From the NCBI GenBank assembly GCA_016928165.1, contig JAFGLH010000185.1:5759-69758 (forward strand): a stretch of DNA of 64,000 nucleotides, read 5' to 3'. Origin of the DNA: Pirellulales bacterium (GTDB lineage Bacteria > Planctomycetota > Planctomycetia > Pirellulales > Thermoguttaceae). The notes below the pieces were generated by a model, which was not told the DNA's origin, searched no databases, and saw only the letters and a list, made by a program, of their open reading frames with translations. Position 1 is the first letter of the stretch; each line of letters opens with the position of its first letter. A program made the position numbers and the translations under genes. Below are positions 2,808-51,033 of this stretch, piece after piece.

Positions 2808-2858
2808 ATCGTTCATGGCGTTCCGTTTAGCGCCTGCAAGACCATCGTCTTGTGCGGC

Positions 2859-2929
2859 GGTGAAGGGGACAGGCACATTTTTCGCCCTTGAAAGGGCGAA
2901 AAATGAGCCAGTCCCCGGCCCGTGAACGG
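2859..2929 (+). repeat. 70-nt repeat family copy A (ggtgaaggggacaggcacatttttcgcccttgaaagggcgaaaaatgagccagtccccggcccgtgaacgg)
   Basis: Near-identical to 47895-47970 (same orientation) and to the reverse complement of 49585-49653. Contains the hairpin ttttcgccc-ttgaaa-gggcgaaaa. Sits between the convergent moxR and batA-like genes. Confidence 0.8.
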
Positions 2930-47174: not shown

Positions 47175-47705
47175 CTACCGAAGCAGGTGCAAATCCACGG
47201 CCCGCCGTTCCGCATTGACGGCGGCTAGGGCTTGGGGTTCTTTTTTCAACAGCTTGATCAATTGAGAGGCGGAGCAGCCGAGCATTTCGGCCGCTCGGCG
47301 GGGATCGAAGTCCTTGGCCGCCAGCGTGTCGAGCGCCTCGGCCAGCAGGGTGGGAAAGTCGGCGTGCGAGGTATTGATTTCGATTCGCCCGCCGCGGCAT
47401 CGCGATTGCCACAAGGGACTTGGGATTGTCCGATTATCAGCAGCACCCTTATTAGAAATCGATCGCCGGATTTCCAGGGCCAGATTGACCCGCAACCGGA
47501 ACATCGCAGCGGCGCGGTTTTCGGCTTGGCTCCGCCGCTCGGCCGCTTCGGCCATCACGCCGGTGGGGCAATGAACGAGCACGACGCCGGTGGAAACCTT
47601 ATTGCGGTGTTGGCCGCCGGGGCCGGACCGTTTGACAAACTGAATGGAACAATCTTCGAGCAACTTATCCGGCGGCAGCGCGGCGGGGTGATCGTATGGC
47701 GGCAT
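47175..47705 (-). CDS. GGQ-domain (RF-1 family) protein with a non-canonical C-terminal extension
   Basis: KRSGPGGQHRNKVSTGVVL is the peptidyl-tRNA hydrolase GGQ motif. It is followed by about 100 aa ending in AAEMLGCSASQLIKLLKK, which resembles a Fis-type HTH. Start at ATG 47705. Confidence 0.75.
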   Translation of the reverse strand: MPPYDHPAALPPDKLLEDCSIQFVKRSGPGGQHRNKVSTGVVLVHCPTGVMAEAAERRSQAENRAAAMFRLRVNLALEIRRSISNKGAADNRTIPSPLWQSRCRGGRIEINTSHADFPTLLAEALDTLAAKDFDPRRAAEMLGCSASQLIKLLKKEPQALAAVNAERRAVDLHLLR

Positions 47706-47894
47706 CGGCTCATCGAAGTTTGTGGAGACAAAAGAAATACTTGAGGGCGTCGCTTGTCTCCAAGCATGCAACCGTTCACAGGGGACTGCTCCCCCCGGCG
47801 GTGCGGCCTGTTAACAGTTGCCATTGTTGCCGGGACTCGATTTTCAATTCTATTGCAAATTGCCGCGGATGTCGATGGCGTAAGAAACGTGGGC

Positions 47895-47970
47895 GGTGAA
47901 GGGGACAGGCACATTTTTCACCCTTGAAAGGGCGAAAAAATGAGCCGGTCCCCGGCCCGTGAACGGTTAC
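47895..47970 (+). repeat. 70-nt repeat family copy B
   Basis: The sequence ggtgaaggggacaggcacatttttcacccttgaaagggcgaaaaaatgagccggtccccggcccgtgaacggttac is near-identical to 2859-2929. Confidence 0.85.
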
Positions 47971-48074
47971 GGCAAACCAGCAGAGGCACCAATTTCAAAA
48001 CACGTTTTAAGAAGATTTGCCATGAAAGATAAAAGCAATTTCAGCAAAAGCCGTTCTTTCCCATGGTCCGGAGT

Positions 48075-49520
48075 TTACGCCGGGCGAGCGAGGCGTTCGT
48101 CGGCCCCCTGGCGGATCATCAGTCGCTCTTGCTCCGGGTCTAGCCCGTTGCGCAGGGCCAACGTGGCGGCGGACATGGCGCCGTTGTGGACAAGAATTTC
48201 GTCGGCTCGGGCCTCTTTCAAGCGGTCGCGGACGGCCAACGTGGGCGGGACGCCACGGACAAGGACCGCGTCGATCGCCTCGACCGGCAATCGTCCCACC
48301 TCGACCGCGTTGCGAATGACTCGATCGAACAACTCCACGTCGTCGTCGATCATCTCGTGCTGCAACCGCTCGAACATTTTTACCGCCGGACCCTCGGAAA
48401 CCATCGTAGACGAGTAGTTGGCGTTGCTGGCGTCGGAAGTGAGCATGAACTCCGGCATGACCAGCCGGCTGGCGATTGCCCGCAACTCGGCCTGCAAGAC
48501 GGCGACGTATCGGCCGGCGTCGATGCCGGCGGCGGGGAACTCGTAATCGGTCCCGGCCGCCGCGTCGAGGATCGTGCCGGGGGCGTAGCGGCGAAAGTGG
48601 CTTGTCCGGCCGGTCGCCGCATTGGCGACGCTCAGGTCCGCCTGGCTGGCGACGAACTCGGCCAACCCCGCGGCGGTTGCCGCGCGGTGTTTGCGGATCA
48701 CCGCGATGGCCGACTGAATTTCCGCCACCACGCTCATGTTCCGCAACAGCTTTTCCGCACGGCGGAGATTTTTCCTCACCGGATAGAACAACGGCAGCCC
48801 GCGCTTTACATTGGCGTCGACGTTGGCCTTGCGGTGCTGTATTTCGGCCGCGTCGATCAGCCGCCCGCCGATCCAATAGCCCAGCACGGTTTCCACATCG
48901 TCCGGGTCGGTCTGAACGCCGAAGCTGGCGGCGGGATCGGAGCGGCGGCCGTCGGGCGCGGCGACCTCGGCCGGCTCGACGAACCGCACGCGGGTCGTAC
49001 CGTCGACCGAAGGGAACAGTCGCAAAAAACATTCACCGTCGCGGTCCATGCGGCGGACAATCTCCTGCTGCCGCCGCCGCCAGCGGTTCAGACGGACGAA
49101 CTCGTCGATTAACGCCTGCGCCTCGGCGACGGTTGAATCGTCGGGCTTCGCGCCGCGCCGGGGCGCCGCGCGATAGACGTGCCCGCTGCCGACGATGTAG
49201 CTGATGCGGTTCTCGTGGCCGTTGATGGCGAATTCGTTTTCCACGGCCAGCGCCCGGCATTGGTCGCGGATTTGCGCCAGTTGCAATTCGTCGTTGAATG
49301 GCATGCCGCACGTTCCGCCTCCGGCCGCGCCCCCTAAACGTCGCCAGGGCGTGCCGTCGAAGTCGGACAGCGCCTCGGCCGGATCGACAAAATCGTCCCA
49401 AAGCTGGTCGAAGGACTCAATCAGCCGGCGTTCGAGATATGTCAGGCGGGGACTTGTTTGGCCGTTCGCCGCGACAGAATTTTTACGTACGACTTGTTCG
49501 ATCGATTCGGTCGTTGACAT
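48075..49520 (-). CDS. phage portal protein homologue (orphan)
   Basis: Portal-family patterns: AINGHENRISYIVGSG, RMDRDGECFLRLFP and MPEFMLTSDASNANYSSTMV. No other phage genes lie nearby. Start at ATG 49520 (MSTTESIEQ). Confidence 0.75.
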   Translation of the reverse strand: MSTTESIEQVVRKNSVAANGQTSPRLTYLERRLIESFDQLWDDFVDPAEALSDFDGTPWRRLGGAAGGGTCGMPFNDELQLAQIRDQCRALAVENEFAINGHENRISYIVGSGHVYRAAPRRGAKPDDSTVAEAQALIDEFVRLNRWRRRQQEIVRRMDRDGECFLRLFPSVDGTTRVRFVEPAEVAAPDGRRSDPAASFGVQTDPDDVETVLGYWIGGRLIDAAEIQHRKANVDANVKRGLPLFYPVRKNLRRAEKLLRNMSVVAEIQSAIAVIRKHRAATAAGLAEFVASQADLSVANAATGRTSHFRRYAPGTILDAAAGTDYEFPAAGIDAGRYVAVLQAELRAIASRLVMPEFMLTSDASNANYSSTMVSEGPAVKMFERLQHEMIDDDVELFDRVIRNAVEVGRLPVEAIDAVLVRGVPPTLAVRDRLKEARADEILVHNGAMSAATLALRNGLDPEQERLMIRQGADERLARPA

Positions 49521-49584
49521 GGAGTGTTCCTTTTCCCGAAGAACGTAATTCATTCCGTTCTTGTGAATGGAATATCGCGTGAAG

Positions 49585-49653
49585 GTAACCGTTCACGGGC
49601 CGGAGACTGGCTCATTATTTCGTCCTTTCAAGGGCGAATAATGTGCCTGCCTC
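49585..49653 (-). repeat. 70-nt repeat family copy C (inverted relative to copy B)
   Basis: The reverse complement reads gaggcaggcacattattcgcccttgaaaggacgaaataatgagccagtctccggcccgtgaacggttac. Extra gtgaacggttac fragments follow at 49661-49705. Confidence 0.8.
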
Positions 49654-49989
49654 TTTTATCCTCGAGGGGGACAGTCCCCTGTGAACGGTTACGCGTGAAC
49701 GGATTGAAATCCGTTTAACTTCAAACCGCCCTCGCCCCCCAGCCGTTCTCACGCGAGCTGGAGATGGGAAATGAAAATCGGTTTATCGCCGTTGCGATTC
49801 GGTATACAACATTGCCGGGTGGATTTCCATATTGCTTTTTGTGCCACTTTTGTAGAACGGGATTCATTCCGTTCCGATAATGCACACCGTCCGGGAACGG
49901 ATCGATATTTATTCTGCGGTCGGTTCGCTTGTCGTATTTGCGAGTTTTGCTACACTGATTGACGCAAAAAGTTGTATTTTTCAATCCCG

Positions 49990-51033
49990 ATGCAAACGCT
50001 TCCAATGTGCGGCAAAACCACATCGAACGATTCGCTTCGGCACTACGACGCACTGCTAGTGGCCTCCTTCGGGGGACCGGAGGGGCCGGACGACGTTCTG
50101 CCTTTCCTGGAAGACGTGGTTTTCGGCAAGAACGTGCCTCGGTCGCGACTGCTGGAGGTTGCAAAGCACTATGAAATGTTCGGCGGCGTCAGCCCGATCA
50201 ACGGGCAACTCCGCGCCCTGTTGGCCGCGCTGGCCGACGAGCTGAACACACGCGGCCCACCGCTGCCGGTCTACTGGGGAAATCTCCACTGGCATCCGTT
50301 TTTATCCGATGCGCTGGGCCAGATGGCCGGGGACGGCGTGCGCCGCGCGCTGGCCTTCGTCACTTCCGCATTTGGTTCTTATTCCGGCTGCCGGCAATAT
50401 GTCGAAGCCATCGAGCAGGCGCGGCGGGAAATCGGACCAAAGGCGCCGAAGGTGGACAAATTGCGACTGTTTTACAACCATCCGGGCTTCATCGAGGCAA
50501 CCGCCTCGCGGACGGCCGCCGCGCTGGCCGAGATTCCCCCGCCCGATCGTTCATCGGCGCGTTTGTTGTTCACCGCCCACAGTCTCCCGATTGCGGCGGC
50601 CGAACGTTCGCCCTACGTGCGCCAGCTTCGCGAGTCGTGCCGTTTGGTAGCCGACGCCCTTGGGGTGCGAAAATGGGATTTGGCATACCAGAGCCGCAGC
50701 GGCCCGCCGTCGCAGCCGTGGCTCGAACCGGACGTCCGCGATTATATCCAAACGCTGCACGAAGAGCGCGGCGTGAAACATCTGGTAATCGCGCCGATAG
50801 GGTTTTTAGTGGAAAACATGGAAGTCGTCTACGATCTGGACATCGAGGTCCGGGATCTGTGCAACGCATTGGGCGTCAACATGATCCGGGCGGCGGTGGT
50901 CGGCGGCCATCCGCGACTGGTCGGCATGATCCGCGAGTTGGTCGTCGAGCGGCTCGATCCGGCCGCCGAGCGGCTTGCCCTGGGCACATTAGGCCCCTGG
51001 CCCGACGAGTGTCCGAAAGATTGCTGCCGATGA
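49990..51033 (+). CDS. hemH: ferrochelatase
   Basis: ALLVASFGGPEGPDDVLPFLEDV...GGVSPINGQ...TAHSLP...IAPIGFLVENMEVVYDLD are typical ferrochelatase blocks. Start at ATG 49990; ATG 50005 is also possible. Confidence 0.9.
   Translation: MQTLPMCGKTTSNDSLRHYDALLVASFGGPEGPDDVLPFLEDVVFGKNVPRSRLLEVAKHYEMFGGVSPINGQLRALLAALADELNTRGPPLPVYWGNLHWHPFLSDALGQMAGDGVRRALAFVTSAFGSYSGCRQYVEAIEQARREIGPKAPKVDKLRLFYNHPGFIEATASRTAAALAEIPPPDRSSARLLFTAHSLPIAAAERSPYVRQLRESCRLVADALGVRKWDLAYQSRSGPPSQPWLEPDVRDYIQTLHEERGVKHLVIAPIGFLVENMEVVYDLDIEVRDLCNALGVNMIRAAVVGGHPRLVGMIRELVVERLDPAAERLALGTLGPWPDECPKDCCR

Follow-up and report, generated by a model that had tools for sequence, protein, structure and literature searches.

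A lone lambda-family portal gene in a Pirellulales genome is probably one piece of a dispersed, gene transfer agent-like element

A full-length portal gene among host genes

We analyzed a 64,000-nt stretch of DNA from a Pirellulales bacterium (assembly GCA_016928165.1, contig JAFGLH010000185.1, positions 5,759 to 69,758; hereafter the window), which is part of contig C257 of a metagenome-assembled genome (MAG; G000) of 3.62 Mb in 269 contigs and with a completeness of 88.5%. The subject of this work is a phage-type portal protein gene in the window, which stands among host genes and is bracketed by inverted copies of a short repeat. The gene and its two neighbors are as follows:

48075-49520, minus strand: portal protein gene of the lambda family (PF05136), 481 aa, ATG start, TAA stop, no frameshift
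47175-47771, minus strand: host RF-1-domain (ArfB-like) gene, the left neighbor; on a different contig from the portal in same-genus genomes
49972-51033, plus strand: host ferrochelatase gene, the right neighbor, divergent from the portal; in relatives it lies beside the alpha-2-macroglobulin (A2M) gene and not beside the portal

The portal protein belongs to the lambda portal family, with a score of 83.7 bits against Pfam Phage_portal_2 (PF05136) that exceeds the gathering cut-off of 32.9; the match takes in almost the entire profile (positions 22-354 of 354). It also matched PHROG 21 'portal protein' (E=4.5e-40), and its ATG at 49520 is aligned with the start codons of orthologues in four same-genus genomes. 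An earlier reading of the window from its letters alone (the original prediction) had described a full-length 481-aa portal homologue without frameshifts and had proposed a search with a portal hidden Markov model; the open reading frame (ORF) and the PF05136 and PHROG 21 matches confirm this description.

Within about 15 kb on each side of the portal, host-type genes only were found, including those for a GH2 glycosidase, the RF-1-domain (ArfB-like) protein and ferrochelatase. Further host-type neighbors encode a 2233-aa A2M, a DUF6666 protein, glycosyltransferases, RecJ and an MqnC/CofH-like enzyme. When all families of the gene cluster described below were searched by tblastn against contig C257, no match besides the portal was obtained, which bears out the earlier statement that terminase, capsid, protease and tail genes are absent for 15 kb on either side. 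The portal is therefore alone in the window, but not in its genome, where terminase, capsid and neck partners are located on other contigs.

Partner genes on other contigs

The partners of the portal were placed by tblastn on contigs C124, C54 and C9. Together with the portal's C257, the capsid and packaging set is spread over at least four contigs of this genome:

C124 119-589: TerS (phrog_4102, 2.6e-16)
C124 576-2198: TerL (phrog_38, 3e-74; weak match to Terminase_6C)
C54 7335-8531: major capsid protein (MCP; PF25209)
C54: scaffold/protease-like protein (phrog_29592)
C54: small cement-like protein (its orthologue matches Phage_cement_2)
C54: fam43, fam13, LamG protein, fam12, fam10 and head-completion-like (neck) protein
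C54 4351-4800: divergent Xre-type regulator (fam17)
C9: upstream genes for HD-domain protein, fam8, trypsin-like peptidase and fam3

Terminase and capsid genes, for which a genome-wide check had been suggested, were hence recovered from C124 (TerS and TerL) and C54 (MCP and the scaffold-like, cement and neck proteins). A lambda GpA-type terminase (PF05876) was considered and rejected, as none is present in this genome; its TerL is of another family and was reached only via synteny in relatives. The protein fam13, which opens the capsid operon, is small (about 75-90 aa), conserved (...AQLEAALAEMLAE.LRRGFFGTAAVELSVQDGTIQHIRR...) and without a Pfam match.

A conserved gene order across Pirellulales

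A six-frame search detected the portal in 49 of 61 related genomes, usually as a single copy without stops. Its identity to the window protein is 81-83% within the genus, mostly 66-77% within the family and 51-63% within the order. Gene order was compiled over 49 named Pirellulales loci of at least 15 kb, in which ORFs were chosen by a picker weighted by G+C content at third codon positions. The upstream part of the conserved order reads HD-(HTH)-fam8-trypsin-...-fam3-P-loop/GNAT-TerS-TerL-portal, and the part after the portal reads (fam13)-scaffold-cement-MCP-...-fam12-fam10-head completion; the same recurrent order was also found in about 20 fragments from IMG/VR. The head-completion gene is followed by one of three arrangements: tail-completion gp17 (PF11367) with more genes, a tail tube (PF18906) block, or an Xre regulator, after which host genes begin. 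Divergent lineages have a MoaB/Mog-like host gene and an EEP-family gene in common at one and the same flank of the cluster. In seven of the 49 long loci, the portal is alone among unrelated genes, matched over most of its length and apparently intact, and within the genus the capsid genes are already separated from the portal.

Outside the order, a sample of 301 genomes of the phylum contained portal versions of 35-39% identity in one further family of the class, and none beyond that family. Among 50,697 phage records, the nearest portal of a sequenced phage showed 26% identity over half of the protein. No description of a conserved gene transfer agent (GTA)-like or domesticated capsid cluster in Planctomycetes or Pirellulales was found in the open-access literature searched.

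Besides these typical clusters, divergent portals (34-39% identity) within a similar gene order, TerL-portal-scaffold-MCP, were observed in genome G059 (C5, 1514240-1515523), from one family of the order, and in 17 of the 24 genomes of family f26, another family of the class; they could reflect a deeper common origin or a second domestication. In a Planctomycetia MAG (locus L116, CAVOTX010000011.1, 9935-21228), four portal-family ORFs (838, 305, 382 and 288 aa) are interspersed with leucine-rich-repeat proteins (fam30). Such amplification or fragmentation of the portal family was also seen in loci L118 and L120, and one MAG has two separate portal loci. In addition, about 40 related contigs filed as 'viral' in IMG/VR (L172-L211) are all at most 32 kb long and have the chromosomal flank layout, including the HD, trypsin-like and fam3 genes. 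These are likely to be false-positive virus calls for planctomycete hosts.

Vertical descent and purifying selection

The divergence of the portal was compared with that of the host gene for ferrochelatase. Identities of the two proteins to those of the window's own genome are correlated (Spearman 0.79, 41 genomes), and so are their distances when 20 genomes are compared all against all (Mantel r 0.79, p=1e-4, slope 1.13), with mean p-distances of 0.35 versus 0.37 in this comparison. Maximum-likelihood (ML) trees of portal and ferrochelatase each recover host genus and family; they have five of 18 splits in common, compared with a maximum of three among 2000 label permutations. The dN/dS analysis among orthologues that had been proposed with the original prediction gave 0.12-0.23 for the portal (0.19-0.23 for pairs with the own genome), which indicates purifying selection, and 0.12-0.19 for TerL.

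No tyrosine recombinase was found near the cluster in four of five well-assembled relatives, and in a closed genome the nearest one is more than 1 Mb away. Among the conserved cluster families tested against Pfam, none is a replication protein or an integrase, and several have no annotation. In genome G005, a tyrosine recombinase gene (C1, 274389-274928) lies 4 kb from the portal and adjoins a P-loop/GNAT (fam2) gene that is truncated; the cluster there lacks its upstream half. This recombinase probably arrived with a mobile element that inserted secondarily into the cluster.

A promoter-like motif upstream of the portal and of the capsid genes

A conserved block is located upstream of the portal on its coding strand:

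49787-49849, minus strand: promoter-like motif of 63 nt, AAGTGGCaCAAAAAGcAAT-aTGGAAA-17 nt-TATACC, with the box GTGGCCCAAAAAG

In plus-strand coordinates, the -35-like hexamer occupies 49824-49829 and the -10-like hexamer 49801-49806. Four same-genus genomes have the 63-nt block ahead of their portals, at 78-88% conservation. An nhmmer profile was built from five sequences of the genus and searched against the whole genome (3.6 Mb) and about 1.4 Mb of related loci. Two matches only were obtained in the own genome, namely the portal block itself and C54 10640-10604 (minus strand), the latter directly upstream of fam13-scaffold-cement-MCP. By plain blastn against the own genome the 63-nt block is unique, the C54 copy being seen only with the profile. 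In relatives, the motif is always on the coding strand of the cluster, and it stands either before separated portals (loci L078, L079, L081 and L147) or between the portal and fam13/scaffold (L089, 11446-11488; L105, 8152-8198; L115, L087 and others). In the class of motifs belonging to capsid fragments, the fam13 ATG is within about 10-20 nt. From its sequence and placement, we infer that the motif would act as a dedicated promoter which keeps the scattered pieces co-regulated. A structured leader RNA upstream of the portal is unsupported: the single-sequence fold gave z = -0.40, and RNAalifold of six portal leaders yielded a covariation term of -0.05, with the central hairpin absent in the window's own genome.

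A new MITE family

The repeat on both sides of the portal is half of a miniature inverted-repeat transposable element (MITE) of about 144 nt, which is composed of GTAACCGTTCAC, hairpin 1, TTCACCGCCGA, hairpin 2 and TGTGAACGGTTAC. It has 12-nt terminal inverted repeats (TIRs; GTAACCGTTCAC/GTGAACGGTTAC), two hairpins and 8-bp target-site duplications, which are clear at most of the 34 complete copies (for example GCGAAGTT, GTGGGTTC, CTTATTGA and CGTTAGCG). The 79-nt half-repeat is present in 171 near-full copies in the own genome, 52 of them at contig ends, and all MITE matches (308 sites) resolve into 291 loci in 3.6 Mb, or about one per 12 kb. The element occupies 52 of the 538 contig ends, and all of these breaks fall on the same side of the repeat, at the junction between the two hairpins; it is a main cause of assembly breaks in this MAG. 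Each of the five same-genus genomes harbors variants with a right end of 97% identity, at copy numbers of some dozens or higher. A search for an autonomous insertion sequence (IS) partner gave no TIR pair 0.6-4 kb apart with a duplication in this 88.5%-complete MAG, which is fragmented at the repeats, and only two of 157 exact TIR 12-mers lie outside MITE loci.

The element is thus short and non-coding, with TIRs, target-site duplications on individual copies and a high dispersed copy number. It is similar to the Correia (Neisseria), RUP (Streptococcus pneumoniae) and Nezha (cyanobacteria) MITEs in its length class (about 100-200 nt), non-coding nature, TIRs, duplications and hundreds of copies, as well as in internal hairpins able to add terminator-like signals. 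It differs from them in its new TIR GTAACCGTTCAC, the 8-bp duplication and the two-hairpin body, and is regarded as a new MITE family; its variants are genus-wide, and no IS partner was found in the assembly.

MITE copies around the portal

Three copies of the MITE and related features were delimited in the window:

2856-2929, minus strand: MITE copy A, a half-element with the first hairpin and a degenerate TIR GTGAACGGCTGC
47768-47970, minus strand: MITE copy B, 203 nt, with TIRs GCAACCGTTCAC / GTGAACGGTTAC, a shortened second hairpin, an 88-nt insert and the first hairpin (the part at 47895-47970 had been described in the original prediction)
47804-47891, no strand assigned: insert inside copy B, 88 nt, unique in the genome (blastn), with direct repeats GGCGGTG at 47797-47803 and 47892-47898
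47942-47958, minus strand: terminator-like stem-loop and T-run from copy B, GGGCCGGGGACCGGCTC then ATTTTTT, 117 nt past the portal stop; a pattern match only
49577-49584, no strand assigned: left target-site duplication of copy C, GCGTGAAG, with its partner GCGTGAAC at 49693-49700 (7/8 identical)
49585-49692, plus strand: MITE copy C, 108 nt, with both TIRs and an internal deletion in the second hairpin; in the portal 5' leader

The inverted repeat arms 47899-47970 and 49585-49656 are 72 nt long and 88% complementary. What had been described as a 70-nt repeat does bracket the gene in inverted copies and has a third copy at 2856-2929, although the unit proves to be half of the larger element. 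Copy B is without a target-site duplication (flanks CCAAGCAT versus GGCAAACC). The site of copy C is empty in genomes G003 and G004. The position of the leader block past copy C, a spacing difference of about one MITE length and these two empty sites mark copy C as a simple insertion into the native leader of the portal.

The repeat is also abundant enough for such a bracket to be expected by chance, a circumstance that the original prediction itself had named as refuting it: with 291 loci, 33 adjacent pairs lie 300-3000 nt apart, compared with 48 +/- 5 under random placement. The suggestion that MITE-like repeats have mobilized or insulated the gene was right in recognizing a true MITE. The mechanism itself is unsupported, as copy C has a duplication of its own and none surrounds the segment from copy B through the portal to copy C. 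The hairpin of the repeat (TTTTTCGCCC-TTGAAA-GGGCGAAAAA) had been called terminator-like; in either orientation, however, the stem follows the T-run and precedes the A-run, which is not the layout of a canonical intrinsic terminator. The count of terminator-like sites was not above that in shuffled sequences.

Other small elements were noticed in the same area. Hairpins of the type GAACGG-ATT(G/C)A(A/T)(A/T)-CCGTT occur at 49697-49715 and 49855-49873, and also at about 49540-49560, that is, around copy C and in the spacer between portal and ferrochelatase; they are possibly another small palindromic repeat family. The sister genomes G001 (L074/L035) and G002 (L072/L033) carry small elements of other kinds at almost the same position of the portal leader, the one in G001 being a palindromic element, CCCTCTCCC...GGGAGAGGG. 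The portal leader seems to be an insertion hot spot.

Discussion

The portal gene of the window is probably a piece of a dispersed, GTA-like domesticated element, whose parts are probably co-regulated and which has been inherited vertically in Pirellulales. Its domestication is favored by co-divergence with the host, purifying selection, the lack of a linked integrase in four of five well-assembled relatives, the recurrent host flank, fragmentation without decay, and the distance from phages. At the genomic level, several features of a GTA were found, namely resident structural and packaging genes, vertical inheritance with the host (as judged by one marker) and purifying selection. Those of a prophage were not: the genes lie on at least four contigs, no integrase is linked in four of five relatives, and the order-wide distribution tracks the host. 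The company in which the portal has been kept (TerS, TerL, capsid and neck genes) makes a role connected with capsids more probable than an exaptation of the portal by itself. Two of the interpretations offered in the original prediction are therefore partly upheld. A portal domesticated for a host function agrees with the vertical descent and purifying selection, but the gene has been kept along with its TerS, TerL, capsid and neck partners. A dispersed GTA-like system is the interpretation that the evidence favors, with the portal as an intact and selected component rather than a remnant.

If so, an ancient phage-derived set would have comprised genes for HD-domain, HTH, trypsin-like peptidase and P-loop/GNAT proteins upstream, followed by TerS, TerL and the portal through to the neck genes. 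The portal would then have become its own transcription unit between the ArfB-like gene and ferrochelatase, while keeping the promoter-like motif. With this motif ahead of the portal as well as the capsid fragment, joint activation of the pieces is probable. On induction, the portal would form a dodecameric ring at one capsid vertex, and TerS/TerL would pump DNA through it into capsids made from the C54 genes. The predicted product is a viriform, GTA-like particle or, at the least, a capsid filled with DNA. The MITEs on either side of the portal are independent insertions rather than its carriers in a composite transposon; copy B, which has no duplication, may mark a MITE-MITE recombination joint and may incidentally supply a terminator-like hairpin.

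Several points weigh against this interpretation. Since 12 of the 61 relatives, some of them 95-99% complete, are without the portal, the element is dispensable, and in G059, which belongs to an order-level family, the portal version is only 34% identical. The genome-wide check for tail genes, run by tblastn with all tail-side families from relatives, matched none in the own 88.5%-complete genome, and tail modules differ among lineages and are present only in some; for these two reasons the end product could differ from a classical tailed GTA. Nor did tblastn detect the P-loop/GNAT gene (fam2) in the own assembly. The co-divergence was measured against one host gene, ferrochelatase, and related genomes are non-independent samples. 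The promoter function has been deduced only from conservation and hexamer similarity, and a generic sigma-70 promoter scan did not flag the conserved motif. Moreover, copy B spans the left junction of the portal segment, and its identity to other copies is 96-97%; an assembly artefact by bubble-merging is possible there. The element, described here by its genomic features, is accordingly filed as GTA-like rather than as a GTA.

The most serious rival, although unlikely, is that the cluster represents temperate phages or tail-less satellites of the type of capsid-forming phage-inducible chromosomal islands (cf-PICIs), which co-speciate with or reinfect their hosts and of which the portal would be a mobile-element piece. 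The absence of tail genes from the own genome is what makes a satellite of this kind the strongest competitor, and the set of TerS, TerL, portal, protease/scaffold, capsid and head completion, often tail-less, resembles that of cf-PICIs. The filing of about 40 related contigs as viral in IMG/VR, the integrase 4 kb from the cluster in G005, the variation of tail modules by lineage and the lack of the portal in 12 of 61 genomes would also fit. However, a cf-PICI is a compact mobile island that carries an integrase along with modules for regulation and replication and borrows the tails of a helper, whereas in Pirellulales no integrase is near the cluster in four of five good assemblies (the nearest in a closed genome being more than 1 Mb away), and the portal is usually single-copy and diverges together with a host gene at the same rate. 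The cluster is also split into chromosomal pieces in many genomes with its genes apparently intact, and such splitting would be intolerable to a packaged mobile genome. As for the IMG/VR contigs, their size of at most 32 kb and chromosomal layout speak against a viral origin, and no close relative was found in the 50,697 phage records. A portal that is a decaying prophage remnant, or a solo exaptation unrelated to capsids, would explain why it is alone among host genes in the window, but is very improbable: the gene is intact and full-length, has a dN/dS of about 0.2, equal to that of TerL, and is conserved order-wide; furthermore, all head partners are retained in the own genome and the promoter-like motif is common to the portal and the capsid fragment.

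Two further explanations concern the MITEs. The portal segment might have been misjoined into C257 at MITEs by the assembler and truly lie beside TerL and/or the capsid genes. In favor of such an artefact are the 52 contig ends at the MITE, the end of C124 (TerS-TerL) in a MITE, the missing duplication of copy B, and the finding that, in each of the five same-genus genomes, three separate contigs carry the RF-1-domain gene, the portal, and ferrochelatase with A2M, respectively. The risk is concentrated on the left junction through copy B and appears low. At k-mer lengths of 55 and above, nothing in 47600-50000 is repeated elsewhere in the genome, and for 49700-50000 the uniqueness extends down to k=21; copy C resembles other copies at only about 88-91%. 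The native leader block at 49787-49849 lies beyond copy C, which places the portal/ferrochelatase junction in unique sequence at 49850-49970. In addition, the terminal MITE of C124 is wrongly oriented to be copy C, on C54 the scaffold gene has 1.5 kb of different sequence ahead of it, and portals of the genus are only loosely linked to TerL, with gaps of 444 to more than 1500 nt where TerL is visible. That two MITE copies moved the portal to its present site as a composite transposon is more improbable still. Two complete inverted MITEs do bracket exactly one gene at a non-ancestral position, and the 8-bp duplications show that the family transposes. Against this stand the outer flanks CCAAGCAT and GCGTGAAC, which form no duplication, and the nature of copy C, which has its own 7/8 duplication, interrupts the native leader and corresponds to empty sites in G003 and G004. 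The conserved promoter-like block of the portal lies outside the bracket, the 33 such brackets genome-wide are fewer than under random placement, and no transposase partner has been assembled.

Compared with known systems, the dispersed Pirellulales element is most readily set beside RcGTA of Rhodobacter capsulatus (Alphaproteobacteria). The two are alike in chromosomal phage-derived head and packaging genes, vertical descent at the level of an order, purifying selection, the lack of a linked integrase and the retention of genes although they are spread over several loci; that they also answer to a common regulatory signal is plausible. There is no detectable close sequence relation between them, the phyla are different, and the best matches to Rhodobacter phages are at 26%. 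The Pirellulales portal is of the lambda family (PF05136), whereas that of RcGTA is of the HK97-type family, and the Pirellulales tail genes are variable or absent. With respect to the lambda gpB family, the window portal is a member over the whole domain, but it differs in being apart from terminase and capsid genes, in a host chromosome, and behind its own promoter-like element.

To our knowledge, few GTA lineages have been characterized, most thoroughly in Alphaproteobacteria, and Planctomycetota have few known phages and few genetic tools. In its boldest form, which we put forward tentatively, the proposal is an order-wide GTA-like system with a lambda-type portal, in which scattered genes would stay functional because each fragment has the same dedicated promoter. 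It could represent a new GTA lineage of Planctomycetota, which in the present organism may make tail-less, DNA-filled capsids. Virus predictors that file these chromosomal clusters as viral would inflate estimates of planctomycete prophages and of virus-host relationships. The scattered, apparently intact genes and their common promoter-like box constitute a concrete, testable regulon, and, if the proposal is true, an order-wide, vertically inherited capsid and packaging system would be an independent case of virus domestication in Planctomycetota.

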